A DNA stretch of 64,000 bases from a virus, in IMG/VR virus record IMGVR_UViG_3300030387_000070. One strand, written 5' to 3'. Made by a program: the position numbers and the translations under genes. Under the pieces are notes generated by a model that had not been told where the DNA came from, ran no database searches, and was given only the letters and a program-made list of their open reading frames with translations. How positions within the stretch are numbered: the first letter of the stretch is position 1; each line of letters opens with the position of its first letter. Shown here piece by piece: positions 2-64,000 of the stretch.

Positions 2-283
2 ATTGAGTATGCAGAAGAATTAGCCGAGTGCTTTAATGAAAATTTTGATTGTAATGTACCTGAAAACGATGCGTGGAGTAACTGTATCGAAGAAGTATTT
101 AGCTCTCTTGGTAGAGTAGAAAAAATTAAACAAAAGTTGGAACGTAATGGATATTGGGTTGATGAACTTGAAAGCTCTGATGGTGATATTCGTATTTGTT
201 GTAATTGGAGTAGCCTTCCGATGTATTTTAATTCGTGGAAGGAAGTTAAAGAATGGATTGATGAGGTGGAAGGAATTGACTGA
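2..283 (+). CDS. hypothetical protein, 5' end outside window
   Basis: Frame 2 is open from the window edge to TGA 281-283 (..NGYWVDELESSDGDIRICCNWSSLPMYFNSWKEVKEWIDEVEGID*). Found by hand; absent from the ORF track because it has no start in the window. Confidence 0.45.
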   Translation: MEYAEELAECFNENFDCNVPENDAWSNCIEEVFSSLGRVEKIKQKLERNGYWVDELESSDGDIRICCNWSSLPMYFNSWKEVKEWIDEVEGID

Positions 284-7579: not shown

Positions 7580-8896
7580 ATGACTACTAACAATTCTATG
7601 ACCGTAATAACCTCTAAGCCCTTCGGCGCACTGAATGTGGATGTGTACCAGAATGATAAACATCAGTATTATATGACCCGTGAACAGATTGGGCGAGCAC
7701 TGGAATGTAAAGAACCTCGGAAGTACATTGCGAAGATTCATGAGCGTAATGCAGACCGTCTTGACCCGTTGAGCTCGGTCGTCAATTTGACGACTGAGGT
7801 CGGAAATTATACGCAAGAACGTCAAATATATATGTACAGTTTGCGTGGCGTAATGGAAATCTGCCGCCTTTCTCGTCAGCCGAAAGCAGATGCGTTTATG
7901 GATTTCTGCTGGGACATTATGGAATCTTTGATGCGTGGTGATTCCGTTCTTGCTACTCCTCAGATGGATGCTGCACTGAGTAAGGAGTTCATTGATGTAA
8001 GACTTCACGCTCTGTTTGATAGTGTGAAGAATCTTCAGAGTGAGCTTGATTCTACCCGGAAAAATCTTAGTGACCAGATCGAGGAGGCTCGTGCCACCAG
8101 TAATGAGGCACTGAATGTGATTAGCAGCGTATCTCAGTGTGTCCATCAGATTAAGGACAAGCAGATGGATGATGCGATTCGTTCTACCAGAAACTTCACT
8201 CCTCGTAAGGATGTGATGAGCGACTGGCGTAAGAAGATGTATGAACGTATCAATGTGATTGCCGCAATCAATGAAATGAAGGTTCAGGATGTATTTCGTG
8301 ATATTTACGAATATATGAATCGTGTCTATACCTTCGTTATTGAGGAAGAACGCAGAAAGTATTGTGCAAGAACCGGTCGCACTGGTCACATTCCTACGAT
8401 TGATATTGTTGAAGCAAGTACGATGTATAAGTCCATCTTTGGTGCTTTGGTTGAAGATTCGTATACTGAAGCAATCAATAAGAAGAAGGAAGAGACCGCT
8501 GAGCAGAAAGCTCTGCTTGAAGCTAAGGCTGTTGATGCAGCTCCTGAAGTAGATGTCTGTGTTGCTCCTGTGATTGAGGTAGAAGCTAAGGAAGTTGAGC
8601 CTGAACCGATTGTGGAGGAAAAGCCCAAGAAGCAGAGCGAAACGGCAAAAATTCTTTTCCCGATTCTGTTACCTTTGGCAGAAAAGCTTAATGATAAGCC
8701 TCAGTACAAGCACACTTATACTCTGATTTACGAGCGTATTGGCTATAAGAAAATGAATAATTTTTTTGTGGCTTACGAAAAGGCACATGGTAAGGCACCT
8801 CATCCGAAGACTAAGGTGTTTATCGAAAATGAAAAGAATCTCGCGCTGTTTAAGAAGACTGTGAAGCAGTTGATGAAAGAACAGGAGGATAAGTAA
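7580..8896 (+). CDS. phage anti-repressor, Bro-N domain family
   Basis: N-terminus ..FGALNVDVYQNDKHQYYMTREQIGRALEC..KIHERNADRL..YMYSLRGVMEICRLSRQPKADAFMDF matches the remembered BRO-N/anti-repressor pattern. Long low-complexity, charged C-terminal half. Confidence 0.7.
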   Translation: MTTNNSMTVITSKPFGALNVDVYQNDKHQYYMTREQIGRALECKEPRKYIAKIHERNADRLDPLSSVVNLTTEVGNYTQERQIYMYSLRGVMEICRLSRQPKADAFMDFCWDIMESLMRGDSVLATPQMDAALSKEFIDVRLHALFDSVKNLQSELDSTRKNLSDQIEEARATSNEALNVISSVSQCVHQIKDKQMDDAIRSTRNFTPRKDVMSDWRKKMYERINVIAAINEMKVQDVFRDIYEYMNRVYTFVIEEERRKYCARTGRTGHIPTIDIVEASTMYKSIFGALVEDSYTEAINKKKEETAEQKALLEAKAVDAAPEVDVCVAPVIEVEAKEVEPEPIVEEKPKKQSETAKILFPILLPLAEKLNDKPQYKHTYTLIYERIGYKKMNNFFVAYEKAHGKAPHPKTKVFIENEKNLALFKKTVKQLMKEQEDK

Positions 8897-18884: not shown

Positions 18885-19001
18885 GTTAAAATAGACATTT
18901 TATCGTGATTTTCGTTAAAATAATTAACGAAGTATCGTGATATTTATTCCTCCGAAAATGCCATGCGTGGGGCTGACAGCCGGGAAAGACCGGCGATATA
19001 T

Positions 19002-19083
19002 GCCAAGGTGCTGCAAATGGGAGACAGGGCGAGCCCAAACCTCGCTGTGGAAACACATGCGGTTTCGAATACCGTCCTTGGCA
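19002..19083 (+). tRNA. tRNA-Leu(CAA), type II, CCA encoded
   Basis: Hand fold:
- acceptor GCCAAGG/CCTTGGC
- 3-bp D stem
- anticodon stem GCGAG/CTCGC with loop CCCAAAC
- extra arm TGTG-GAAA-CACA
- T arm GCGGT-TTCGAAT-ACCGT
- then A and CCA
Position 33 is C, which is unusual. Confidence 0.65.
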
Positions 19084-19114
19084 CCAGATAATTTTATGAA
19101 GAAAGGATGATTGC

Positions 19115-19798
19115 ATGGTTAATAGGGCAGAAGATCATATTGGTGATGTCTTTGATTTGTTTGAGGTGATTGATGTTATTCGAGATGAAAATAATATTCC
19201 ATCTTACAAATGTCGATGTAAAGAATGTGGATGGACAGGGCTAAAAAATATAGCTCAGGCGAGAGCGGTTAAAGTGTGTCGGCATAAACAATCGAGTGGC
19301 GATTATAGAAATTTTTCTACACGGTGGAAAAACAAAAGAATCGGACGAATCTTTCATGGAATGAAAGCAAGATGCTATGATGTTGATGATAAAAACTATA
19401 TAACGTATGGCATGAAAGGAATTTGTGTTTATCAAGAATGGTTGGATAATCCAAAGTCATTTGAAGAGTGGTCGTTGAAAAATGGATACAAAGATAGTTT
19501 GACAATCGATAGAATTGATTCGACAAAAGATTACTGTCCTGATAATTGCAGATGGATATCATTGGAAGATAATTCAAAATATAAATCCACAACTCGAATG
19601 TTAGAAGTAGATGGTGAAATACATACGGGACGTGATTGGGCGGCAGAATTAGGGCTTGGAACAAACACGATAAATAAATATGTAAGAAGATACGGAGAAG
19701 ATAATACAAAACAATTTATAAGAAGAGTATTAAAGGACCCGGATAAAGTGAATTCTCGACAAGGGAAACAAACTATCTATAATCTTTACATGAACTAA
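19115..19798 (+). CDS. HNH-type homing-endonuclease-like protein
   Basis: LTIDRIDSTKDYCPDNCRWISLEDNS is the HNH_3-like core. N-terminal CxxC zinc motif (CRCKECG). C-terminal HTH-like WAAELGLGTNTINKYVRRYG. Sits between two tRNA genes. Confidence 0.65.
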   Translation: MVNRAEDHIGDVFDLFEVIDVIRDENNIPSYKCRCKECGWTGLKNIAQARAVKVCRHKQSSGDYRNFSTRWKNKRIGRIFHGMKARCYDVDDKNYITYGMKGICVYQEWLDNPKSFEEWSLKNGYKDSLTIDRIDSTKDYCPDNCRWISLEDNSKYKSTTRMLEVDGEIHTGRDWAAELGLGTNTINKYVRRYGEDNTKQFIRRVLKDPDKVNSRQGKQTIYNLYMN

Positions 19799-19805
19799 AT
19801 TGAAA

Positions 19806-19845
19806 TGGCCCAGTGTAAAAACTGAGTACATTGGGCCAAATATTT
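19806..19845 (+). terminator. hairpin terminator after the HNH gene
   Basis: 12-bp stem TGGCCCAGTGTA / TACATTGGGCCA (one G-U pair) with a 9-nt loop, followed by an A/T-rich tail. Confidence 0.5.
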
Positions 19846-19851
19846 ATATGA

Positions 19852-19935
19852 GCACCCGTGGTGAAATTGGCAACCACGATGGACTTAAAATCCATTCCCG
19901 GTAACGGGTTGCGAGTCCGAGTCTCGCCGGGTGCA
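19852..19935 (+). tRNA. tRNA-Leu(UAA), type II
   Basis: Hand fold:
- acceptor GCACCCG/CGGGTGC
- anticodon stem ATGGA/TCCAT with loop CTTAAAA
- extra arm CCCG-GTAA-CGGG
- T arm GCGAG-TCCGAGT-CTCGC (non-canonical T loop)
No encoded CCA. Confidence 0.65.
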
Positions 19936-19940
19936 TATTT

Positions 19941-20013
19941 CTGGGCGTAGCGAAGTTGGCATCGCACCTGTTTTGGGAACAGGGGACCGCAAGTTCAAAT
20001 CTTGTCGCTCAGA
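19941..20013 (+). tRNA. tRNA-Pro(UGG), CCA encoded
   Basis: Hand fold:
- acceptor CTGGGCG/CGCTCAG
- D arm GCGA..TCGC
- anticodon stem CCTGT/ACAGG with loop TTTGGGA
- T arm GCAAG-TTCAAAT-CTTGT
- then A and CCA. Confidence 0.75.
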
Positions 20014-20019
20014 CCACTA

Positions 20020-20106
20020 CGAGGATTCGCCAAGTTGGTAAGGCAGCGGAATTTGACTCCGCCAGCGCTGAACAAGCGGTCACAGGTTCGAGTCCTGTAT
20101 CCTCGG
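20020..20106 (+). tRNA. tRNA-Gln(UUG)-like with a 19-nt extra arm
   Basis: Hand fold:
- acceptor CGAGGAT/ATCCTCG
- D arm TCGCCAAGTTGGTAAGGCA
- anticodon stem GCGGA/TCCGC with loop ATTTGAC
- variable region CAGCGCTGAACAAGCGGTC (CGCT/AGCG hairpin)
- T arm ACAGG-TTCGAGT-CCTGT
- discriminator G. Confidence 0.55.
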
Positions 20107-20113
20107 CTTATAT

Positions 20114-20195
20114 GCGGGTATGGTGTAACTGGCAGCCACGTCAGATTTAGGATCTGATGCCGAAAGGCGTGAGGGATCGTGCCCCTCTACCCGTA
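20114..20195 (+). tRNA. tRNA-Leu(UAG), type II, CCA encoded
   Basis: Hand fold:
- acceptor GCGGGTA/TACCCGT (G1-U72)
- anticodon stem TCAGA/TCTGA with loop TTTAGGA
- extra arm GCC-GAAA-GGC
- T arm GAGGG-ATCGTGC-CCCTC (atypical loop)
- then A and CCA. Confidence 0.55.
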
Positions 20196-20297
20196 CCACG
20201 GTCATAGAATGGTTGCGTACCGTTTGTTGATCTCCTTTACTATTATTCCCGGCTCGCCAGTGATGGTGCAGTAGTGCTTTGTAAGCTGGGTTTTCAT

Positions 20298-20369
20298 GCA
20301 GCGGTCGTACAACGGCTAGTACATCAGCCTTCCAAGCTGAGGATGAGGTTTCGACTACCTTTCGCTGCT
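20298..20369 (+). tRNA. tRNA-Gly(UCC), CCA encoded
   Basis: Hand fold:
- acceptor GCAGCGG/TCGCTGC
- D arm GTAC..GTAC
- anticodon stem TCAGC/GCTGA with loop CTTCCAA
- T arm GAGGT-TTCGACT-ACCTT
- then T and CCA. Confidence 0.75.
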
Positions 20370-20560
20370 CCAATCTTGTATGGGTAGGATCTTTAGCGGT
20401 CAGATCCAGCCGCGCCTGTGCAAGATACCACCCCGAAAGGGGCGAGATATAGGAAATGTGCATCGCTGTTATTCCTTCCTCGTCTATATGATATAGATGC
20501 AATAGTGTTTTATAAGGAAGGTCCCCAGTTGAATAGTTGCAGCTGTTTGACTGGTAATAT

Positions 20561-20634
20561 GGGATAGTAGCTCAGTTGGTCAGAGCTGGCGGCTCATAAC
20601 CGCTTGGTCGCGAGTTCAAATCTTGCCTGTCCCA
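20561..20634 (+). tRNA. tRNA-Met/Ile2(CAU)
   Basis: Hand fold:
- acceptor GGGATAG/CTGTCCC
- D arm GCTC-AGTTGGTCA-GAGC
- anticodon stem GGCGG/CCGCT with loop CTCATAA
- T arm GCGAG-TTCAAAT-CTTGC. Confidence 0.75.
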
Positions 20635-20742
20635 CTAACCCGATAGGGTGAATACATAGAATTTGCTAGAAATTTTGTTTTATGGGCGAATAAATAATAT
20701 GACGTTGATACGTCTATTATTTTTCGCTAATTTTTAAAGTTT

Positions 20743-20763
20743 TAGCTATGTAACACAGGATAC
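20743..20763 (+). promoter_or_regulatory. 21-bp motif, forward (copy 3)
   Basis: TAGCTATGTAACACAGGATAC, 18 nt upstream of GTG 20781. A/T-rich upstream sequence (CTAATTTTTAAAGTTT). Confidence 0.55.
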
Positions 20764-20780
20764 GAAAAGGAGGTGGTTTG

Positions 20781-21503
20781 GTGAAACATTATGGAAGTAT
20801 TTGCGAGATTGATGGTTCTAAGATTGAGCCTGTCTCGTGTATCACTGGTGGTTCACCTTGTTAGCCAAGACCTTTCTATTGCCGGCAAGCGGGCAGGTTT
20901 GGCTGGAGAACGGTCTGGTCTATTTATGGAAATGATTCGTGTGATAAAGGAGATGAGGGAGGCCACCAATGGAGAGTATCCAAAATTTGCAATCTGGGAA
21001 AACGTCCCAGGAGCCTTCTCTTCCAACAAAGGAGAAGACTTTAGATGTGTCTTGGAAGAATTTGCACGCATTGTCGAACCAAGTGTTTCAGTTCCTCGAC
21101 CTTCGGGAAGAGAATGTAAGTGGGCAAAAGCTGGAGCAATCGCCGGAAACGGATGGTCCTTGGCGTGGAGATTATTCGACGCTAGTGGTTGGGGTGTTCC
21201 CCAGCGTAGAAAACGTCTCGCGCTTGTCATGGACCTTAGAGGACAATGTGCCGGAAAAGTATTATTTGAGCAAACGGGCGTGTCAGGGGATCTTGATAAG
21301 AGCGTCAAGACGTGGAAAACCATTGCCCGACCTTCTGAAGGATGCACTGCAGGAGATGATTCATTGGTGGGAGATGAAAGATCCTACACTTTGAAGATTC
21401 GTTCTGGCTGCGCAGGGGGGGTAAAGGAGCACTCGTGCAGAATGAATTGAGTGCGACTCTCTCCACTTTGCAAGATCAGACTTTGTTCTGTGTAAAGCAT
21501 TAA
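20781..21503 (+). pseudogene. C5-cytosine DNA methyltransferase, catalytic part (motifs IV-VIII), frame-disrupted
   Basis: - GTG 20781 follows AAGGAGG by 7 nt and gives ..IEPVSCITGGSPC, then TAG at 20862.
- One frame over: QDLSIAGKRAGLAGERSGLF, WENVPGAFSS, GVPQRRKRLALV.
- Further homologous-looking pieces lie in the two other frames: ..LEDNVPEKYYLSKRACQGIL.. and GGKGALVQNELSATLSTLQDQTLF.
- At least 3 frame changes are needed to read all of this. Confidence 0.7.
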
Positions 21504-21515
21504 GGAGGGAACGGA

Positions 21516-22262
21516 TTGGAAAAAGAAACCAGTTTACATAATTTAAAACAAAATATTTCCACAGCGGTATTTGAAAGCCATAGTCAGGATGCTCGATACA
21601 CTCAGCAAGGTAATACAAGCCCAGCTTGTACAGCTCAATGGGGTACTGGTGGTAATAATATGCCGCTTGTCGCTGAAAAGAAAGCCTTTGCTATGCAGCG
21701 TATTGGCGAATATAAGGAAAGCGAACAGGCCAGCACAATGAAATCTCGTGATTATAAAGATGCAACTGATCTTGTAGTTGAAGAGAAAGAGGTGAAATGT
21801 GCTGGGTTTCCACTTGGATTTAGAGCAGAAAATACGAAATGCTACGATGAAGTGGCTACTACGCTTTGCAATGGTACGCGGCCTGGATTTACTACTGGAT
21901 GTGTTCTCAATTGGATTGTTCGCCGCTTGACTCCTGTTGAGTGTGAACGGTTACAGGGTTTTCCTGATGGATGGACCGATATTGGCGAGTGGGTTGACGA
22001 AAATGGTAAAAAGCACAAGCCAGCCGATTCTCCTCGGTACAAGGCGCTCGGCAATTCGATTGCTTTGCCTCAGTGGTATTGGATTTGCCAGAAGATGAAA
22101 CCGTATATTGGTGAAAATCCTACGCTTGGCAGTCTTTTCGATGGAATCGGTGGCTTTCCGCTTGTCTTTGAAAGTACGTATGGTGATGGTACTGCTATCT
22201 GGGGATCTGAAATTGAATCGTTTTGTGTTGCGGTGACAAAGAAGCATTTTCCAGAAGACTAA
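21516..22262 (+). CDS. C5-cytosine DNA methyltransferase, target-recognition and motif IX-X part with a C-terminally appended motif I-II
   Basis: TTG start 7 nt after AAGGAGG. Contains WGTGGNNMPLV, VRRLTPVECERLQGFPDGWT and RYKALGNSIALP. It then continues into LGSLFDGIGGFPLVFE..IWGSEIESFCVAVTKKHFPED*, which is the FxGxGG AdoMet motif normally found at the N-terminus. Confidence 0.75.
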   Translation: MEKETSLHNLKQNISTAVFESHSQDARYTQQGNTSPACTAQWGTGGNNMPLVAEKKAFAMQRIGEYKESEQASTMKSRDYKDATDLVVEEKEVKCAGFPLGFRAENTKCYDEVATTLCNGTRPGFTTGCVLNWIVRRLTPVECERLQGFPDGWTDIGEWVDENGKKHKPADSPRYKALGNSIALPQWYWICQKMKPYIGENPTLGSLFDGIGGFPLVFESTYGDGTAIWGSEIESFCVAVTKKHFPED

Positions 22263-33323: not shown

Positions 33324-36300
33324 ATGCCAAGTAGTCTACACACACACTCGAATTACAGTCTACTAGATGGGTACTCTTCTCCTGAAGAAAATCTAAAAAG
33401 AGCATCAGAACTTGGTTTGAAAGCCATTGCCATTACGGAACATGGTGAGGTAACAAGCTGGCCGTACTATTCTGAACTAAAAGGCAAGTATCCGAATGTC
33501 AAACTTCTTTATGGTATCGAGGCATACGAGTGCGAAGATAGGGAAGTCAAGGACAAGAATAGTAAATATTGGCATTTAATCATTATTGCCAAGAACGAAG
33601 CTGGTCGTCAGGCAGTCAATCGCTTATCTACACTCGGTCATCTTCATGGCTTTTACAGCCGTCCTCGTATCACAAAAGAGGATATCGCTAAGGAAGATAC
33701 GAATAATTTGATTATCCTGTCTGCTTGTTTGGCGAGTAGGCTGTCAAGAACGGATGATTATGACACTTGTGTCAAGCTGGTTCAAGAGTATAAGAGCTTA
33801 TTCCCTCACTATTATCTTGAGGTTCAGGCTCATGCAAACAGTGAACAAGCAAAATATAATCAGAAAATCATGCGGTTGGCAAACGATACTCATACAAAAG
33901 TAGTCGTCACAAACGATGTTCATGCTGCTACCAAAGAGGATCTTTATTATCAAGATTATTTCCTTCGTATCGCTCATGATACGGAAACCGCCACAGAAAT
34001 CTATGAAGGGTGCTACTTCATGTCTCGTGATGAGCAGCATAGAGCCCTTGATAATCAGATTGGATACGATGCGGCAGAATGGTGTATCAATAATACTGAC
34101 GAGGTTGCTGATCTGTGTGATGATGTGGATATGCCTTGGCATGAACCGGAACTTCCCAAAATTGAGATTCCGCCACAGTATTCTAATTCGGCAGCTTATC
34201 TGAAAGACCTTGTAAAAGAGGGATGTAAGAAACGTAGCATTGATAAGTTTGATGTAGAAAAGCAGAAAATCTATCGAAAACGTGTTGATGATGAGCTGTT
34301 TGTCATTGAGAAGAAAGACTTCTGTGACTACTTTTTGATTCTGGTTGATTACATCAACTGGTGTAAGAAAAATGATGTCATTGTTGGCCCTGGTCGTGGT
34401 TCTGCTGCTGGTTCTCTTGTATGTTACCTGATTGGCATTACGCAGCTTGATTCCATCAAGTATGAACTTGACTTCGGACGATTCCTTACCATTGAGCGAA
34501 AAGACCTTCCTGACGTTGATGTTGATGTCAGTGACCGTGCCAAGGTTGTCGAGTATCTGACACAGAAGTATGGAGAAGATCGAGTAGTTCAGGTTATGAA
34601 CATCGTGTACACTACTCCGGTTACTTCAATTCAAGATGTTGGTAAGGTGCTCGGTTTCCCGTATGCCGAGATAAGAAAAATCAGTGAGAAGTTCGTTCAA
34701 AAGACATGGAAAGATTGCCTTGAAGCCAACACAGAAGTAGCTGAGAATCCAAAATATAAGGAACTACTTGATATTGCAAGTCATATCAATGGTCGCCCAC
34801 GAGGATATGGTATCCATGCTGGCGGTGTTATTGTTTGCCGACATCCTTATTACGAGTATATCGGTATCCGGCATGGTACTGACGGAGAGCACGTTATTTC
34901 CGTTGATAAGGTGATGGACGAGAAGATTGGACTTGTTAAGTTTGATATTCTTGGTGTTGCGTCGCTGGTTGCCATTGATGAAGCGAAGCGTGAGGATAAT
35001 ATTCCAGACTGGGAAATTGATATCAACAATCCTGAATTTGAAAACGACAAGGCAACTTACGATTTGATTTGCTCCGGTAAGACAGACAATCTATTCCAGA
35101 TTGAATCGTCCGGCATGAAAGATCTGGTTGCGCAGCTTCAACCTAGGTCGATTGAAGAACTATCCGCTTTGATTGCTCTTTATCGCCCTGATGCAATGCC
35201 GTCCATTCCTACATACGTTGACTGCAAGTATCATCCCGAACACATTCATTATTTCCATCCTGATATGGAACCAATTTTCCGCAGTACCTATGGCGTGAAC
35301 ATCTATCAGGAACAGAGTATGAAGCTCACAAAGGTCTTTGGTGGCCGAAGCGATGCTGGTGCTGATAGAATGCGTAAGTGCTTGGCAAAGAAAAAACCTG
35401 AGAAGGTCAAGGAAGAGGTAGAACTTCTTCACGATGAAATTCTTGCAAATGGATACGATAAAGCAACCGCTGAGTATATTTGTAACGAGTTGTCAACGAA
35501 GGGCGGCTATGGTTTCAATAAGTGTATTTCTGGCAACACGAAGTTGTGGAGAATGAGAAGTGGTCGGTTTGAGCCTACTGTTGCAGAAATGTACAAGATT
35601 CGCAATGATAGGAAGTTTGCTATCTTGACAAATCACACACATCTTAGGGACAAATATAGACGATACGGTTACGGTAGTGCGTTGTCAATGTGTGATGATG
35701 GACGCATTCGGATGAATAAAATTATTGATATCAAGTATTCTGGATATCGAATGCTGTATCGTGTAACAACTGAGACCGGTGCGACCATTGAATGTACAGA
35801 TAATCATAAATTCCCGACAACTGATGGCATTAAGTTGCTTTCTGATATGAGAATTGGTGATGAGTTATATGAGATTGGTGCTTATGAGGTTTGCAGAAAC
35901 AAGTATAATCTGACGGATGGAAATTTCGAAAGCAATTTGCCGAAGCCGGGACAAATGGGGTTCCAGACGAAGGAATTTAGTGCGAATCGTCTGTTTGAAG
36001 AGACGAAAGAAAAGAATAGACTGAAAAGAAGCCCATGTGAAATTTGCGGTAGAGAATATTCCGAAGATGCTCGTTTTGAAGTACACCACAAAGATTTTGA
36101 CCATACGCATAATGTACCTGATAACTATACTTGGTGCTGTGCATCGTGTCACAAGAAACTTCATTACGCTCACGGGCGAGTAAAACAGTATGAAAAGGGC
36201 ATCCCGTCAAAGACCGCTAAGATTATTTCTATTGAGGAAATTGGTTTTGATGATGTCTATGATGTGACAATGGATGCTCCGAATCACAATTTTGTAGTGT

Positions 36301-37340
36301 CAACTGGTATTGTAACTTGCAACTCTCATTCACAAGCCTATGCTGACATCTGTCTCCAGACTGCATATTTGAAAGCCCACCATCCGCTTGCATTCTTTAA
36401 GGCTATGCTGAACCTGAATAAAGCAAAGGTCGGCAAGGTCAACAAGATTATGGTGGATGCACGCAGCTTTGATATTCAGATTCTTCCGCCGAGTATCAAT
36501 CGTTCCGGCATGGACTTTACTGTGTCAAATGGTAAAATCCTGTTTGGCTTATCTGCTATCGGTGGTATTGGCGATACGCTTGCTGAAACTATCATTGCAG
36601 AACGAGATAGAAATGGAAAATTTAAGGGACTTGATGATTTCACGAGTCGTGTTCGTGCAACGAAGGCGCAGATTATTGCATTGGTTAAATCCGGTGCGAT
36701 TCCTACAAAGAACAAACGAATATTCTTGGAAAAGTACATTACCAGCGGTCTGGAACAATCTGAGTTTAAGCCAGTCAGTACACTTCCTACCAAGGCAGTT
36801 TTGCTGAGTAAGTGGGGTATTGATACAGAGCATTATAAGGTTGGTAAAAAGGTTGACAAAGAAACCGTCTTACGGATCTATAATGAAAAGCGCCGTGTCG
36901 TACATGAAACCGAGAAGCTGAAAAAGAAAGAAGCGTATATGGACGAGCAGACCACAAAATATCTACAAGATGAAGAACTTTGGGAGTTCCAGACTTTGCA
37001 GACCTTTATCAGTGACCCGAATCCTTTCGAGAAGGCATTTACTTATATCAAGGATTTCTCTGAAATCGAAGAAGGTGATTCTTGTGTACTGGTTGGTATT
37101 ATCGCAAAGATTCAGAAGAAGAAAACGAAGACTGGTATGCAGTTTGCATTTGTAAATCTGTATTCTGGCGATGGTATTATTGAGCTGACCGTATGGCCGA
37201 GAGTCTTGTCGGATTATCAGGATTTGATTGTAAAGGGAAGTCAGGTGGCTGTGCTTGGAAAGAAGGAAGATGAATCGCACGTTATTGCAAGCAACTTCAA
37301 ACCTTACAAGCAGTGGTTGCATGATAGAGAGATAGCGTAA
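33324..37340 (+). CDS. dnaE: DNA polymerase III alpha subunit (DnaE-type) interrupted by an intein
   Basis: PHP N-terminus (LHTHSNYSLLDG, ITEHG). GPGRGSAAGSLVCYLIGIT, ERKDLPDVDVDV, HAGGV. GYGFNK|C...N|SHSQAYA..AYLKAHHP. Confidence 0.9.
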   Translation: MPSSLHTHSNYSLLDGYSSPEENLKRASELGLKAIAITEHGEVTSWPYYSELKGKYPNVKLLYGIEAYECEDREVKDKNSKYWHLIIIAKNEAGRQAVNRLSTLGHLHGFYSRPRITKEDIAKEDTNNLIILSACLASRLSRTDDYDTCVKLVQEYKSLFPHYYLEVQAHANSEQAKYNQKIMRLANDTHTKVVVTNDVHAATKEDLYYQDYFLRIAHDTETATEIYEGCYFMSRDEQHRALDNQIGYDAAEWCINNTDEVADLCDDVDMPWHEPELPKIEIPPQYSNSAAYLKDLVKEGCKKRSIDKFDVEKQKIYRKRVDDELFVIEKKDFCDYFLILVDYINWCKKNDVIVGPGRGSAAGSLVCYLIGITQLDSIKYELDFGRFLTIERKDLPDVDVDVSDRAKVVEYLTQKYGEDRVVQVMNIVYTTPVTSIQDVGKVLGFPYAEIRKISEKFVQKTWKDCLEANTEVAENPKYKELLDIASHINGRPRGYGIHAGGVIVCRHPYYEYIGIRHGTDGEHVISVDKVMDEKIGLVKFDILGVASLVAIDEAKREDNIPDWEIDINNPEFENDKATYDLICSGKTDNLFQIESSGMKDLVAQLQPRSIEELSALIALYRPDAMPSIPTYVDCKYHPEHIHYFHPDMEPIFRSTYGVNIYQEQSMKLTKVFGGRSDAGADRMRKCLAKKKPEKVKEEVELLHDEILANGYDKATAEYICNELSTKGGYGFNKCISGNTKLWRMRSGRFEPTVAEMYKIRNDRKFAILTNHTHLRDKYRRYGYGSALSMCDDGRIRMNKIIDIKYSGYRMLYRVTTETGATIECTDNHKFPTTDGIKLLSDMRIGDELYEIGAYEVCRNKYNLTDGNFESNLPKPGQMGFQTKEFSANRLFEETKEKNRLKRSPCEICGREYSEDARFEVHHKDFDHTHNVPDNYTWCCASCHKKLHYAHGRVKQYEKGIPSKTAKIISIEEIGFDDVYDVTMDAPNHNFVVSTGIVTCNSHSQAYADICLQTAYLKAHHPLAFFKAMLNLNKAKVGKVNKIMVDARSFDIQILPPSINRSGMDFTVSNGKILFGLSAIGGIGDTLAETIIAERDRNGKFKGLDDFTSRVRATKAQIIALVKSGAIPTKNKRIFLEKYITSGLEQSEFKPVSTLPTKAVLLSKWGIDTEHYKVGKKVDKETVLRIYNEKRRVVHETEKLKKKEAYMDEQTTKYLQDEELWEFQTLQTFISDPNPFEKAFTYIKDFSEIEEGDSCVLVGIIAKIQKKKTKTGMQFAFVNLYSGDGIIELTVWPRVLSDYQDLIVKGSQVAVLGKKEDESHVIASNFKPYKQWLHDREIA
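35523..36323 (+). mobile_element. intein (267 aa) with HNH endonuclease domain inside DnaE
   Basis: Inserted in the conserved GYGFNK-SHS box. Begins CISGNTKLW, has block B IECTDNHKF, an HNH core CEICG..FEVHHKDFDHTHNVPDNYTWCCASCHKKLH, and ends NHNFVVSTGIVTCN followed by Ser. Confidence 0.85.
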
Positions 37341-59982: not shown

Positions 59983-60810
59983 ATGATTATTGATTGCAAA
60001 TCTATTGCACAAGATATCAAAGATAAAATCAAGAATATTATCGCAGAGGCCGATTACACTCCTGTTTTACATATTTATCAAGTAGGGGATAATCCTGCGT
60101 CTAATGCTTATATTAGAGGTAAATTGCGTGACTGTGAAGAGGTGGGGATCGAAGTAGAACTTATTAAACTGCCAGAAAATATTACTGAAGATGAATTGAA
60201 TAACAAGATCTTAGAAGATTATAATTGGGAATATGTGAACGGTATCATTGTTCAGCTTCCGTTGCCAAAACATATCAATCCTAAAAATATCTACATTCCA
60301 GACGCAGTTGATGTTGATGGATTTAATTCTACATCCAAATTTCAGCCTTGCACTCCGCTGGGCGTTATGAAGATTTTTGACTCCATCGGTTACGATCTGG
60401 ATGGCAAGAATGTGCTTGTGTGTGGTCAATCTGATATCGTAGGTCGTCCGTTGGTCAATATGCTGATTAAGCGGCACTGTAATGTAATCTCTGTGAATAG
60501 TACGGGTTCCGCCATGAAAGCCACTGCCATCGGATTTGGAATAGTCAATGTTATTATTTCCGCCGTTGGTAAGCGTGACTTTATTTCGACGTTTGATTTA
60601 TTTGATACGGATGTTTGCATCGACGTTGGTATCAACTATGACGAGAACGGAAAGCAGCACGGCGATTGTACTGATGCTGTTTATGATATGAAGGATGTCA
60701 AAGTAACACCTCGTATCGGCGGAGTTGGCCTTATGACTCGCGCTATGCTCTTATATAATGTATGTGTGGCGAAATACGGGGCAGAGAAGATGGAAGAGGT
60801 GATTGAATGA
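59983..60810 (+). CDS. folD: bifunctional methylenetetrahydrofolate dehydrogenase / methenyl-THF cyclohydrolase
   Basis: VGDNPASNAYIRGKLRDCEEVGI, GIIVQLPLPKHI, DVDGF, PCTPLGVMKIF, GQSDIVGRPL and TPRIGGVGLMTRAML. Confidence 0.85.
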   Translation: MIIDCKSIAQDIKDKIKNIIAEADYTPVLHIYQVGDNPASNAYIRGKLRDCEEVGIEVELIKLPENITEDELNNKILEDYNWEYVNGIIVQLPLPKHINPKNIYIPDAVDVDGFNSTSKFQPCTPLGVMKIFDSIGYDLDGKNVLVCGQSDIVGRPLVNMLIKRHCNVISVNSTGSAMKATAIGFGIVNVIISAVGKRDFISTFDLFDTDVCIDVGINYDENGKQHGDCTDAVYDMKDVKVTPRIGGVGLMTRAMLLYNVCVAKYGAEKMEEVIE

Positions 60811-61037
60811 AAGAACAGAAAATTCCGCTTGAACAGCAACTTATATATAACGTAGAAGAAGTAGCAACCCTCTTGAAAACTACACGCCCTGTGGTATACT
60901 CTTTAATAGAAAAGGGTTATCTTCCGAGCATTGTTCTTGGCAGACGGAAAGTGACGAGGAAGGCACTACTTACATTTCTTGATAAGAACGAGAACACTAA
61001 TTTTAGCCAAATCTTGAAATCAAAACAACTATCGTAA
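60807..61037 (+). CDS. excisionase-family HTH DNA-binding protein
   Basis: YNVEEVATLLKTTRPVVYSLIEKGYLPSIVLGRRKV..KALLTFL fits the HTH_17/Xis-type pattern. It is the last phage ORF before the junction. Confidence 0.6.
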   Translation: MKEQKIPLEQQLIYNVEEVATLLKTTRPVVYSLIEKGYLPSIVLGRRKVTRKALLTFLDKNENTNFSQILKSKQLS

Positions 61038-61098: not shown

Positions 61099-61149
61099 AA
61101 TCGACAATTTGTTTCCAAAGAATGACGTACACACGTCAAAACTTTATAG

Positions 61150-61224
61150 ATGGCAAAGGACGAAGCCCGTCACGGCCGTGGCTTCGAGGGCCTGCTGAAG
61201 CGCTACTTCAACACCGAAGTCTGA
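61150..61224 (+). pseudogene. 3'-terminal remnant of a rubrerythrin-family gene
   Basis: Encodes MAKDEARHGRGFEGLLKRYFNTEV*, which matches the remembered C-terminus (..ARDEARHGKAFEGLLKRYF) of rubredoxin/rubrerythrin-type peroxidases. An in-frame TAG lies immediately upstream (61147-61149). GC content rises sharply here. Confidence 0.5.
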
Positions 61225-61249
61225 TAAGGGTTCCCCGGTTATCTATGCT

Positions 61250-61288
61250 GCCCGCTGCAAGGACATTCCGCCTTGCAGCGGGCTTTTT
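61250..61288 (+). terminator. rho-independent terminator
   Basis: GCCCGCTGCAAGG-ACATTCC-GCCTTGCAGCGGGC followed by TTTTT. Confidence 0.8.
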
Positions 61289-61380
61289 GTGTTTCAATCG
61301 TGGTGACGACTTCTTTCGTAAAAATGGAATCCTAAAGATGCGCAAAGCGAACGCGGTGCGCATTTAAAATCGTCCCGCTA

Positions 61381-61421
61381 AAAGAGGCAGCTGCGCAGAA
61401 TTTCGCACAGCTGCCTCTTTT
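61381..61421. terminator. bidirectional hairpin terminator (serves copA on the - strand)
   Basis: AAAGAGGCAGCTGCGC-AGAATTTC-GCACAGCTGCCTCTTTT, with A/T runs on both sides. Confidence 0.75.
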
Positions 61422-61435
61422 GTGGTGGCTGAACC

Positions 61436-63994
61436 TTACTGGATGCCGGTAACAGGATAATCCTGTGCTTCCACGGCCTTCTTCAGCACCTCATCGTCCA
61501 CTTCGGCGTTCAGGGTAACGATGGCGGTACCGGCTTCGTGGCTGACAACAGCCTCGTCCACCTGCGGCAGAGCCTCCAAAGCCTTCTTGACGCGGGCTTC
61601 ACAGTGATGGCACATCATACCTTCTACGGTCAGGGTCTTTTTCATAGCAATCTTCTCCTTGTAAGTTGTATCTTCCTCCGCTGCGGGCTGCACAAGGGCA
61701 GCGGGCAGGGCAGGGACGTGTTTGGGCGGGTGGTCATGTTTTGCGCTGTGCAGGTCAAACAGGTTCAGCCGCAAGGCGTTGCTCACCACGCAGAAGCTGG
61801 AAAGGCTCATGGCAGCTGCGCCGAACATGGGGTTCAGCGTCAGTCCCAATGGAATGAACACACCGGCTGCCAGCGGGATGCCGATGATGTTATAGATGAA
61901 CGCCCAGAACAGGTTTTCGTGGATGTTGCGCAGGGCAGCACGGCTCAGCCGGATGGCGGCGGGCACGTCCGACAGCTTGGAGTTCATCAGTACCACGTCT
62001 GCAGCGTCAATGGCTACGTCTGTGCCTGCGCCAATGGCAATGCCGGTGTCAGCGCGGGTCAGGGCAGGAGCATCGTTGATGCCGTCGCCCACCATAGCTA
62101 CCTTGCCGTACTTTTGCAGCTGCCGGATGACGGCCTCCTTGCCCTCGGGCAGCACTCCCGCGATCACCTCGTCCACCCCGGCCTGTCGGCCAATGGCCTC
62201 GGCAGTGCGCTGGTTGTCGCCGGTCAGCATCACGACCCGGATACCCATATTTCGCAGCTCCCGGATGGCCTGCGGGCTGTCCTCCTTGATGGTATCTGCC
62301 ACTGCGATAACGCCCAGCAAACGACCTGCGCCACCAAAGAACAGGGGCGTCTTACCCTGTGCAGCCAGCGCGGCGGCTTCGGCTTGCAGCGCAGCGGGGA
62401 TGGCGACCTTTGCGCCGATAAAGGCCGCATTGCCGCCAAAGATCTCCTTGCCTTCCAGCGTGGCGGTAAGGCCGTTGCCCGGCAGGGCGGTAAAATCGGT
62501 AACAGAGGGCAGCTCCAGCTGCTTTTCCTCCGCATAGGCCAGCACTGCCCGCGCCAACGGGTGCTCGCTGCGGCCCTCCAGCGCGGCGGCCAGCGTGAGC
62601 AGCTCGGTCTCAGTCACGCCCGCAGCGGGCAGAAGGTCGGTGACGGTAGGTTCGCCGCAGGTGATTGTGCCGGTCTTGTCCAGCGCTACGATGCGGGTGC
62701 GTCCGGCTTCTTCCAGCGCCGCAGCGGTCTTGAACAGGATGCCGTTCTTCGCACCAAGGCCGTTGCCCACCATAATAGCCACCGGCGTTGCCAGACCCAG
62801 CGCACAGGGGCAGCTGATGACCAGCACCGAGATGCCCCGCGCCAGCGCGTAGCCCACATCCCGCCCCAGCAGCAGCCAGACAAGGGTGGTGACCACCGCA
62901 ATGCTGATGACCGCAGGCACGAAAAAGCCGGATACGGTATCTGCGATCTTTGCAATGGGGGCTTTGGTGGCGGCGGCATCGCTGACCATGCGGATGATCT
63001 GCGCCAGCGTGGTGTCCTCGCCTACGCGGGTAGCGCGGCACTGCAAATAGCCGGACTGGTTGGTGGTGGCGGCGCTTACCTTATCGCCCACGGCCTTGTC
63101 CACCGGGATGCTTTCGCCGGTCAGGGCGCTCTCGTTCACGGCGCTGCTGCCCTCCAGCACAATGCCGTCCACCGGGATGTTCTCGCCCGGACGCACCACA
63201 AAGATGTCCTCTTTCTGCACCTGCTCAATGGGCACGGTCACCTCGGCACCGTCCCGCAGCAGGGTGGCGGTTTTGGGGGCTAGCTTCATCAGGCTTTTGA
63301 GCGCATCGGTGGTCTTGCCCTTGGAGCGTGCCTCCAGCATTTTGCCCACCGTGATGAGGGTCAAAATCATGGCGGCAGACTCAAAATAGAACTCCATCAT
63401 GTAGTGCATGACTAGTTCCTCGTTGCCGTGTAGCTGCGCATCGGTCATGGCAAACAGGGCGTAGGTGCTCCATACAAAGCTTGCCATCGAGCCCATAGCC
63501 ACCAGCGTATCCATGTTGGGGGAGCGGTGCACCAGCCCCTTGAAGCCGTTGATGAAAAATTTCTGGTTGATCACCATCACGATGCCCGCCAGCAGCAGCT
63601 GTACCAGCCCCATGGCAATGTGGTTGCCGTCAAACCAGCGGGGCAGCGGCCAGCCCCACATCATGTGCCCCATGGAAAAGTACATCAGCACCAGCAAAAA
63701 GCCCAGCGAGGCGATAAGCCGCCGCTTTAGCTTGGGTGTTTCGTGGTCGGCCAGTGCGTCCAGCTCTGCGCTGGTACTGGCAGCGGCAGCAGCGGTCTTT
63801 TTAGGGCTTGCACCGTAACCGGCCTGCTCTACGGCACGGATAATGGCGGAATCTTCTGCTGTGCCCTCCACCCCCATGGAGTTTGTCAGCAGGCTTACCG
63901 AACAGCCGGTAACGCCCGGCACGCTCTTTACGGCCTTTTCTACCCGGGCAGAGCAGGCCGCGCAGCTCATGCCGGTAACGTTGAATTGTTCCAT
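61436..63994 (-). CDS. copA: copper-translocating P-type ATPase
   Basis: 852 aa. N-terminal [21 protein letters not shown] motif [30 protein letters not shown], and a C-terminal second [19 protein letters not shown]-rich. Confidence 0.95.
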
Positions 63995-64000
63995 TGTTGT

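Follow-up and report, generated by a model that had tools for sequence, protein, structure and literature searches.

We analysed a 64,000-nucleotide stretch of the IMG/VR virus record IMGVR_UViG_3300030387_000070 (the window, by which we mean this whole stretch), which carries at 20020–20106 a tRNA gene whose anticodon, UUG, reads CAA plus CAG by wobble and whose variable region forms a long extra arm. Judged by its sequence and structure, this tRNA is most simply described as a tRNA-Gln body with a hairpin inserted in the middle of the class I variable loop (C44-A45-G / hairpin / G-U-C48), and our scans indicate that long-arm tRNA-Gln is a recurrent, phage-restricted class, not a one-off. In bacteria, long extra arms belong by textbook account only to Leu, Ser and Tyr (and Sec) tRNAs, and the arm is key to Ser identity. 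The explanation that we favour, and to which we give about an even chance, is that the gene encodes a functional prophage tRNA that would read CAA (and CAG) as Gln and whose arm would alter its recognition by host tRNA-targeting factors.

The initial annotation, made from the letters alone, had described cleanly folding acceptor, D, anticodon and T arms, a discriminator G, a UUG anticodon and a 19-nucleotide (nt) variable region with a 4-base-pair (bp) hairpin, and each of these descriptions held. ARAGORN calls a tRNA-Gln(ttg) of 88 nt at 20020–20107, and Rfam RF00005 matches over its full length at 20020–20106 (51.7 bits, E 3e-8, gathering score 29), its alignment treating 15 nt of the variable region as an insertion. 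Folded at minimum free energy (MFE), the 87 nt form the cloverleaf with a further hairpin of 4 bp (–31.2 kcal/mol, z –2.2), so that no alternative fold with a normal variable loop, such as the initial annotation had envisaged, is better. The nucleotides of the tertiary interactions are all present (U8, A14, G15-C48, G18G19, U33, A37, T54-C56), and the geometry is that of 7/5 acceptor/T stems with a 5-bp anticodon stem. The gene encodes no CCA, the bases after G73 being CTT, and several of its lineage-mates do encode it. In the D loop a single nucleotide separates G19 from A21, which agrees with tRNA-Gln and not with tRNA-Ser, and the D arm (GCCAAG..GGTAAGGC / GCCAAG..GGUAAGGC, G10-C25) is of the Gln type; it matches that of 60 aligned ordinary phage tRNA-Gln(UUG), which were selected by that very D arm, so that the match shows compatibility, not independence.

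The initial annotation had also called the arm type-II-style, which stands for its length and fails for its build. In the phage loci examined, the arm of tRNA-Ser has a stem of 5–7 bp with 1 unpaired nt before it (5') and 1–2 after it (3'), that of tRNA-Leu a stem of 3–4 bp with 1 unpaired nt before and about 2 after, and the long-arm Gln tRNAs have 2–3 unpaired nt, 3–5 bp, a 5-nt loop and then 3–4 unpaired nt; the arm studied here has 3 unpaired nt on each side of a 3–4 bp stem. Because its hairpin sits inside a class I variable loop, the arm is unlike a true type II arm, and the variable region starts with CA and ends with C like the ordinary Gln loop CAUUC, as that of the long-arm Gln tRNAs nearly always does. 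The E. coli tRNA-Gln identity set comprises U1-A72, G2-C71, G3-C70, G10, U35, G36, A37, U38 and G73. With bacterial tRNA-Gln the window tRNA has in common UUG, G10 and the whole D arm, G2-C71, A37, G73 and the C44-A45...C48 flanks, and it differs by C1-G72 in place of U1-A72, A3-U70 in place of G3-C70, C38 (the commoner state among ordinary phage tRNA-Gln) and the 19-nt hairpin variable region, which measures 4–5 nt in Gln. With the type II tRNAs (Ser, Leu, Tyr, Sec) it shares the long hairpin variable region, and with Ser also G73 (G2-C71 being present as well); it departs from them in its shorter stem, its unpaired flanks, the absence of 20a/20b nucleotides, the lack of G1-C72 (Ser, replaced by C1-G72) and of A73/A15-U48 (Leu), isotype scores well below those of real Ser and Leu tRNAs, and an anticodon that belongs to a two-codon box and a class I enzyme.

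Home-made covariance models of 60 ordinary phage tRNA-Gln(UUG), 58 tRNA-Ser and 60 tRNA-Leu from fetched loci gave the window tRNA 56.5 bits for Gln (a score that includes a penalty for the insertion), 52.8 for Ser and 39.4 for Leu. In the same order, an ordinary tRNA-Gln (locus L201) scored 82, 35 and no match, true phage tRNA-Ser 29–35, 73–87 and 36–50, the three Leu tRNAs of the window's own array no match to 44, no match to 44 and 70–80, and the Pro and Met tRNAs of the window 36–45, 43–44 and 41–42; true Leu tRNAs reach 70–93 bits on the Leu model. The lineage-mates obtained 54–62 (53.6–62.3), 59–66 (58.7–65.5) and 26–49 bits. We regard the window tRNA, on its sequence and structure, as a Gln/Ser intermediate whose likeness to Ser would come largely from having an arm. 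The models thus do not confidently call an ordinary Leu or Ser tRNA, an outcome for which the initial annotation had allowed. A tRNA-Leu is excluded by G73, by G15-C48 and by the score on the Leu model, a tRNA-Tyr by the absence of A73, and an ordinary tRNA-Ser by a Ser score below that of true phage tRNA-Ser and by the different arm anatomy and D loop.

CAA makes up 99 of the 382 Gln codons (26%) in the long open reading frames (ORFs) of the window. In the genes that the window has in common with three sister phages whose tRNA-Gln is ordinary, 32 of the 37 window CAA codons lie opposite CAA or CAG and none lies opposite a Ser codon, the comparisons being non-independent because the same window codons are counted against each of the three sisters. 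CAA is used as Gln, and nothing points to a reassigned or an avoided CAA. We also considered a phage with recoded stop codons and rejected this, ORF coverage already being high under the standard code and the window holding no suppressor tRNA.

Homologous tRNAs in related phages, which the initial annotation had proposed to look for, were found in pattern scans of viral contigs and metagenomes: seven further variants with the acceptor CGAGGRY keep the fold and, with the window tRNA, make up what we call its lineage. In the alignment of these eight variants, 96.4% of pair cells are standard-paired, against 29–45% with slid partners, and both-sided changes occur at pairs 6-67 (G-C/A-U), 49-65 and 50-64, while the D and anticodon arms are invariant. 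Within the extra stem, the three inner pairs (G-C, C-G, U-A) are invariant and the outer pair is unpaired in 4 of the 8; the loop has 4, 5 or 7 nt of variable sequence. The identical tRNA gene is present in two IMG/VR contigs of ~134 kb. The pairing pattern shows selection for the fold and speaks for a live gene.

Long-arm tRNA-Gln recurs well beyond this lineage. A scan of IMG/VR with a fixed Gln-type D arm, a long variable region and a T loop, the anticodon being left free, returned 75 loci, and UUG is the anticodon of 70 of the 74 long-arm tRNAs (the rest are two Cys, one Lys and one Ser), which bears out the Gln-like character that the initial annotation had seen in the D arm. With metagenome and genome matches added, 88 loci hold 36 distinct long-arm sequences. 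There are at least 10 acceptor-stem lineages of long-arm tRNA-Gln(UUG), with unrelated hairpin sequences, and in 12 lineage representatives the hairpins are jointly more stable than shuffles (Fisher p 5e-7); p-values of single lineages are marginal, mostly 0.03–0.15, and several lineages have weak 3-bp stems. The same pattern applied to 185,579 species (one genome each) returned mostly archaeal tRNA-Ser, and long-arm tRNA-Gln in only five contigs, all from gut Oscillospirales, plus one degenerate copy. All five contigs carry dense tRNA arrays; tmRNA is present in three and an amber suppressor of Gln-like type in one, and two have identical counterparts among viral contigs; we rejected host-type chromosomal tRNAs on the phage-like arrays, the tmRNA and the identity to viral contigs, and read these copies as likely, if unproven, phage or prophage DNA. 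The rule stated in the initial annotation, that long arms are restricted to Leu, Ser, Tyr and Sec, accordingly holds for the cellular genomes scanned and breaks down in phages. Since tRNA-Gln(UUG) genes of the ordinary short-arm form that share this D arm number at least 120 in IMG/VR, the long form is a minority. It is usually the sole tRNA-Gln of its locus, another being present in 1 of 70 loci, and in an unrelated phage lineage of ~45 kb it is the only tRNA, just upstream of the scaffold and major capsid genes. In that lineage, two degenerate tRNA-like elements lie upstream of the solitary gene (L011, 6500–6900, minus strand; L005, 2426–2694, plus strand); they show T-arm-like GGTTCGAGTCC and CAGTTCGACTCTGG, match the Gln model weakly (15–23 bits) and may be what is left of a longer array.

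Phage tRNAs of further isotypes whose variable loops are normally short, namely Met, Ile-UAU, Lys-UUU, Trp and Cys, likewise carry long arms at this site. The Ile-UAU, Trp-CCA, Cys-GCA and Lys-UUU forms, some of which may be ARAGORN misfolds, were seen in L019, L044, L045, L040/L049, L058, L180, L196, L215, L252 and L226, and in L019, L044 and L045 another long-arm isotype accompanies long-arm Gln in one phage. A long-arm tRNA-Gln(CUG) in L125 was discarded as a poor ARAGORN call with no cloverleaf fold. One contig of a 'Ruminococcus' metagenome-assembled genome (L084; 2448–2526 and 1758–2108, both minus strand) combines a dense tRNA array and tmRNA with a 79-nt amber-suppressor tRNA(CUA) to which the tRNA-Gln model gives 65 bits, which suggests a phage recoded from TAG to Gln and binned with the genome. 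INPHARED, searched for close relatives, gave only short tRNA-sized matches to unannotated gut contigs. Reviews assign long arms to Leu, Ser and Tyr, and our literature search, which left subscription journals mostly outside and is a weak negative to that extent, found no prior description of long-arm tRNA-Gln or of class I phage tRNAs with inserted arms. That phage tRNAs diverge to escape tRNA-targeting immunity is already known.

Within its own phage, the gene is the fourth of seven in a tRNA array (Table 1), in a Leu/Pro/Gln/Leu block with spacers of 5, 3 and 6 nt. We collected 80 related loci (L313–L392) via the repair enzyme encoded next to the array, at 88–100% amino-acid identity and from genomes of about 125–139 kb. 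The anticodon order is the same in nearly all complete arrays, and each slot holds 15–22 different sequences among the related loci. Of the six slots compared, five (those for Leu, Pro and Gln) have a median pairwise identity of 66–78% and the sixth (Met) one of 97%, against 94.5% for the repair gene. The Gln slot is occupied by an ordinary tRNA-Gln(UUG) of 71–77 nt in 69 of 78 arrays, by the window allele (88 nt, C1-G72, G73, long arm) in one, and in the other eight by a second long-arm family of 87–90 nt with U1-A72 and A73, which folds as a cloverleaf with an arm (CAGCGTGCTTTATAGCCGATC) clearly homologous to that of the window tRNA. Because this second family has A73, the arm is not coupled to G73. 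A 72-nt allele of the slot (n = 17) has the same acceptor CGAGGAT/ATCCTCG as the window tRNA, with C1-G72, a 4-nt variable loop and A73; neither C1-G72 nor the discriminator (A73 or G73) is specific to long alleles, and we withdrew C1-G72 as a long-allele feature. As this short sibling also lacks U1-A72 and G3-C70, the hosts may not require the E. coli Gln set. The D-arm pattern of our scan missed this allele and the 90-nt long-arm allele. In the last slot, a 92-nt long-arm tRNA-Met(CAU) replaces the usual 77-nt tRNA-Met in ten arrays; it has a 20-nt variable region (TGATGAGAATAACACCTCAC, 4-bp hairpin) and is found at 8000–8091 of L201 and in ten loci among L313–L392 (e.g. L355, L345, L369, L375). 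The tRNA-Gly(UCC) slot has quite different sequences in the window (20298–20372) and in its closest relative, L001 (12874–12949), two phages that are 96.6% identical over 6.6 kb, so that single slots are exchangeable within otherwise identical cassettes.

Alignment of the window with the related locus L313, whose repair enzyme is 100% identical, gives 99.86% identity over the 5 kb that end at 18999, just three bases short of the first tRNA, no alignable sequence over 19000–20026, 75–82% over 20027–21772 (through the methyltransferase genes) and 97.4% from 21912. The tRNA cassette is a hypervariable island, because its flanks are near-identical and homology breaks at the array edge, and a tRNA cassette that evolves faster than protein genes is unusual in itself. 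With 66–82% identity inside, 97–99.9% in the flanks and a repair enzyme adjoining, the region has the character of a variable counter-defence island, as looked for around escape tRNAs. The repair gene lies directly upstream of the tRNA array and encodes a kinase, a phosphoesterase of the calcineurin type and a ligase in one 737-amino-acid (aa) fusion. A set of kinase, phosphoesterase and ligase heals and seals tRNAs cut by anticodon nucleases, and the fusion is a probable tRNA healing-and-sealing enzyme. No homologue of it was found by blastn or tblastn at the corresponding position of L002.

The favoured explanation has two steps. Class I GlnRS reads the acceptor end, G10 and the D stem, and the anticodon, with the variable region facing the solvent, and EF-Tu and the ribosome already handle long-arm tRNAs. 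The window tRNA would probably be charged with glutamine, because GlnRS leaves the variable region to the solvent and because a long-arm amber tRNA-Ser can be converted into a GlnRS substrate. That tRNA kept its long arm, and changes at pairs 1-72 and 3-70 only were needed (PMC9976931). It is plausible too, at somewhat less than an even chance, that the arm was kept since it changes how host factors that bind or cut tRNAs see this one, be they modification enzymes or defence tRNases that work on, or by way of, the variable or elbow region. The phage would thereby retain its supply for Gln decoding when the host tRNA pool is attacked, and the allele turnover of the cassette and the adjoining repair enzyme would be two further ways of meeting that pressure. 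Support for this second step is circumstantial and consists of the restriction to phages, the recurrence over lineages and isotypes, the fast turnover of the cassette with kept anticodons, the adjoining repair enzyme and methyltransferases, and published precedents. A distinctive variable loop makes T5 tRNA-Tyr resistant to retron-Eco7, and in tRNA-Tyr the variable loop is where Septu cuts (PMC13096335); VapC52 is a defence nuclease that cuts or reads the variable region of tRNA-Ser, and retron Eco2 hits tRNA-Gln at the acceptor stem. The context that matters most, which the initial annotation did not cover, is the recurrent phage class, the hypervariable array, the adjoining repair enzyme and the prophage setting. 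Of the options listed in that annotation, we favour the Gln tRNA whose insertion alters its recognition, on the Gln body, the Gln slot, the use of CAA as Gln and the hypervariable cassette beside a repair enzyme, the altered recognition being the part that we infer. Extended to a general phage trick, in which hairpins in the variable loops of Gln, Met, Ile, Lys, Trp and Cys tRNAs evade host tRNases while class I synthetases still charge them, the proposal is tentative and draws more doubt than confidence from us.

Several observations weigh against this explanation. The lineage scores as well or better on the Ser model (52.8–65.5 bits) than on the Gln model (53.6–62.3), and it is without two E. 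coli GlnRS determinants, C1-G72 standing for U1-A72 and A3-U70 for G3-C70; the other route to Gln-tRNA, through non-discriminating GluRS and GatCAB, needs U1-A72 in the bacteria studied. We know of no nuclease that is specific for tRNA-Gln(UUG) or that targets tRNA-Gln via its variable region, and AriB does not cut tRNA-Gln(UUG). Long alleles are a minority, in 9 of 78 arrays, which fits a mildly deleterious or neutral polymorphism too. Compensatory covariation inside the extra stem was sought in the eight variants and none was found, the inner three pairs being simply invariant. In tblastn of the 737-aa protein against all loci, matches came only from this phage group, from long- and short-allele members alike, and outside the group no long-arm locus has this enzyme within the flanks examined. 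The census of the class, moreover, rests on a restrictive D-arm/T-loop pattern and on IMG/VR, which is dominated by one gut dataset.

The main rival, and a serious alternative even though we hold it to be rather unlikely, is that the arm has no function: a neutral or nearly neutral palindromic insertion in the variable loop of an ordinary Gln tRNA would spread by cassette recombination, with selection only keeping the hairpin folded and the cloverleaf undisturbed. The lack of covariation in the extra stem, its often broken outer pair and the freely varying loop agree with this, as do the weak 3-bp stems of several lineages with their marginal hairpin p-values, the presence of long alleles beside common short ones, which makes the arm dispensable for the slot, and the absence of a general linkage to repair enzymes. 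A functionless insertion sits less easily with the same architecture at the same site in at least ten tRNA-Gln lineages and in other isotypes, with its essential absence from the 185,579 cellular genomes, and with inner stem pairs that are kept while loop length and sequence change. Nor would drift alone be expected to give a cassette that diverges much faster than its flanks with its anticodons kept, because tRNA genes normally evolve slowly. Selection could also act on the arm as a positive handle for a phage or host factor, in precursor processing, for a modification enzyme or in preferential repair by the adjoining ligase. The 3–6 nt spacers of the block and the repair enzyme directly upstream would suit such a role, and natural long arms do act as protein-binding handles, as for SerRS; short alleles nevertheless serve in sister phages whose enzyme is up to 100% identical, most long-arm Gln loci have no such enzyme nearby and the loop sequences are not conserved. 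A handle is thus unsupported, and we think it quite improbable.

The remaining alternatives concern the identity of the tRNA. Its arm and G73 could make it a substrate of the host SerRS, which ignores the anticodon, so that Ser, alone or together with Gln, would be inserted at CAA during infection; G73, G2-C71, A3-U70, C11-G24 and the 19-nt arm do occur together in it, the U1-A72 and G3-C70 that belong to the E. coli Gln set are absent, and the lineage reaches on the phage Ser model what an ordinary Gln tRNA, at 35 bits, does not. SerRS takes identity mainly from the arm and G73 (PMC9976931, PMC7609411). On the other side, the Ser score stays 20–35 bits under that of true phage tRNA-Ser, the arm as such probably accounting for much of the gain; C1-G72 stands where bacterial tRNA-Ser conserves G1-C72; the unpaired flanks of 3 nt and the 3–4 bp stem contrast with 1, 1–2 and 5–7 bp in Ser; 20a/20b, the nucleotides by which the Ser arm is oriented, are absent from the D loop; within this phage group, homologous long arms are also found together with A73; and CAA interchanges with CAG between long- and short-allele phages. 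We consider Ser insertion very unlikely, and just as unlikely a double identity in which SerRS charges the tRNA alone or in competition with the Gln pathway and the prophage deliberately adds Gln-to-Ser ambiguity at CAA. Of the mis-charging tRNA proposed in the initial annotation, the Leu half falls with G73, G15-C48 and a Leu score of 39 bits, and the Ser half is improbable, even though the lineage unites G73, G2-C71, A3-U70 and a long arm and its Gln and Ser scores are about equal. Hardly credible to us is a decayed gene, or an ordinary Leu or Ser tRNA read in the wrong register. The absence of an encoded CCA and the unusual first pair would fit; several lineage-mates carry CCA, though, the stems are intact, the tertiary nucleotides are present, the MFE fold is the annotated one, the register is set by U33 and A37 in an anticodon loop of 7 nt, and the score of 39.4 bits on the Leu model compares with 70–80 for the array's three Leu tRNAs. 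Decay, which the initial annotation had listed as an option, is rejected by the compensatory changes and the 96% pairing over the eight variants.

Phage escape tRNAs are known from T5, whose tRNA-Tyr counters retron-Eco7 (PtuAB) and Septu and whose tRNA-Lys counters PARIS (PMC11555353, PMC13096335, PMC11464382, PMC10264068). Like the window tRNA, they come from a phage tRNA cluster, diverge in sequence or shape with the anticodon kept and have a homing endonuclease in their tRNA region. T5 tRNA-Tyr, however, is naturally long-armed, whereas the window tRNA is of a class I isotype that gained an arm and its resistance is only proposed, and the published model of escape by anticodon-loop mutation does not involve the variable region. 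The amber tRNA-Ser converted to Gln identity (Rogers and Soll 1988, summarised in PMC9976931) likewise is a long-arm GlnRS substrate and places the Gln and Ser identities a few acceptor pairs apart. It was made in the laboratory on a Ser body, in contrast to the natural Gln body with an arm described here. Nature also pairs long arms with anticodons from beyond the Leu/Ser/Tyr sets in nematode nev-tRNAs and in bacterial allo-tRNAs and selC* tRNAs, whose bodies are of the Leu or Ser/Sec type and decide how they are charged. Of these, allo-tRNAs and selC* tRNAs are described in PMC7609411. Unlike the window tRNA, with its 7/5 geometry and Gln-type body, allo-tRNAs have an 8/4 or 9/3 acceptor/T geometry and a long anticodon stem. 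As for repair, T4 opposes PrrC with tRNA repair by Pnkp and Rnl1, and bacterial Pnkp is a kinase-metallophosphoesterase-ligase. The 737-aa ORF resembles T4 Pnkp plus Rnl1 in its kinase, phosphoesterase and Rnl1-type ligase domains, and differs from the T4 system in being a single fused polypeptide with a calcineurin-type phosphatase and a neighbour of the tRNA, not part of it (the T4 case is cited in PMC10264068).

If these long-arm tRNAs are charged with Gln, the boundary between class I and class II tRNA shapes is crossed in nature, and the way in which the variable region is read by GlnRS (or GluRS/GatCAB), SerRS, EF-Tu, modification enzymes and defence tRNases could be tested on natural molecules. 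The structure would surprise a tRNA specialist. Several questions of identity become directly testable, and long-arm tRNAs orthogonal to SerRS would be of interest to genetic-code engineers. The setting is perhaps as interesting as the tRNA, with its fixed anticodon order, fast sequence turnover and adjoining repair enzyme, and suggests a link to an arms race over host defences that cut tRNAs. To our knowledge, almost nothing is known of tRNA-targeting immunity in gut Firmicutes, and the about 80 near-isogenic phage genomes offer a natural system for such an arms race there.

Table 1. Features of the window in and around the tRNA array (positions count from the first letter of the window; tRNA letters are as noted for the gene or its transcript).
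Feature	Position	Strand	Basis
Kinase / metallophosphoesterase / T4-type RNA ligase 1 fusion (polynucleotide kinase), 737 aa	16671–18884	+	phrog_8238 1e-224; Pfam AAA_33, Metallophos, RNA_lig_T4_1 above cut-off
Hypervariable island: tRNA cassette and DNA methyltransferase genes	19000–21900		alignment of window with L313
Seven-tRNA array	19002–20635	+	ARAGORN
tRNA-Leu-CAA	19002–19086	+	
HNH endonuclease ORF between Leu-CAA and Leu-UAA	19115–19798	+	phrog_3377 1e-37
Promoter-like site TCGACA-16-TATAAT upstream of the Leu/Pro/Gln/Leu block	19756–19783	+	consensus match only
tRNA-Leu-UAA	19852–19935	+	
tRNA-Pro-UGG	19941–20016	+	
tRNA-Gln-UUG with extra arm, 87 nt, tRNA positions 1–73	20020–20106	+	ARAGORN, Rfam RF00005, MFE fold
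Acceptor stem, 5' strand CGAGGAT (C1-G72, G2-C71, A3-U70)	20020–20026	+	sequence; 7 of 7 pairs formed
D arm GCCA-AGTTGGTA-AGGC (G10, G18G19; no 20a/20b insertion)	20029–20044	+	as in 60 ordinary phage tRNA-Gln
Anticodon arm GCGGA-AUUUGAC-UCCGC	20046–20062	+	sequence, Rfam match, lineage alignment
Anticodon TTG (UUG), with U33 at 20052 and A37 at 20056	20053–20055	+	sequence, ARAGORN
Variable region, 19 nt, CAG-CGCT-GAACA-AGCG-GTC	20063–20081	+	sequence, MFE fold
Variable region, CAG	20063–20065	+	
Variable region, stem CGCT	20066–20069	+	
Variable region, loop GAACA	20070–20074	+	
Variable region, stem AGCG	20075–20078	+	
Variable region, GTC	20079–20081	+	
T arm ACAGG-TTCGAGT-CCTGT	20082–20098	+	sequence, Rfam match
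Acceptor stem, 3' strand ATCCTCG, and discriminator G73	20099–20106	+	sequence
tRNA-Leu-UAG	20114–20198	+	
tRNA-Gly-UCC	20298–20372	+	
tRNA-Met-CAU	20561–20635	+	
Terminator-like hairpin and T run after tRNA-Met	20701–20714	+	consensus match only
DNA methyltransferase-like ORF in the variable island	20791–21450	+	PHROG match
DNA methyltransferase-like ORF in the variable island	21516–22262	+	PHROG match

The HNH endonuclease ORF inside the array is reminiscent of SegB in the tRNA region of T4/T6. It is present in only 3 of the 78 related arrays, other relatives holding a different insert of ~950 nt there, and we rejected it as a driver or marker of the long allele, since just one of these three arrays is long-allele.

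At the other end of the window, positions 61148–64000 are 99.86% identical to chromosomal contigs of a sporulating Firmicute, which carry Cu-ATPase, rubrerythrin, ScpAB, L28 and EF-Tu. Because this host-chromosome identity starts at 61148, inside the host rubrerythrin gene that contains the phage/host junction, the window spans a prophage end, the prophage being that of a gut Firmicute. A Cu-exporting P-type ATPase, whose exact protein recurs on many metagenomic contigs of a sporulating Firmicute, lies at 61436–63994 on the minus strand, and over 61148–64000 GC rises from about 0.40 to 0.55 and GC skew falls to zero. On the phage side of the junction there is a small helix-turn-helix (excisionase-like) ORF at 60807–61037. 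Over positions 1–60000, the GC skew (G-C)/(G+C) of the plus strand is very strong throughout, at 0.13–0.30 per 4-kb window, and the plus strand also holds nearly all of the long ORFs. Among these, a 1338-aa DNA polymerase ORF (33324–37340, plus strand) also matches HNH endonuclease profiles near residues 892–965, which suggests that it holds an inserted homing-endonuclease or intein-like segment.

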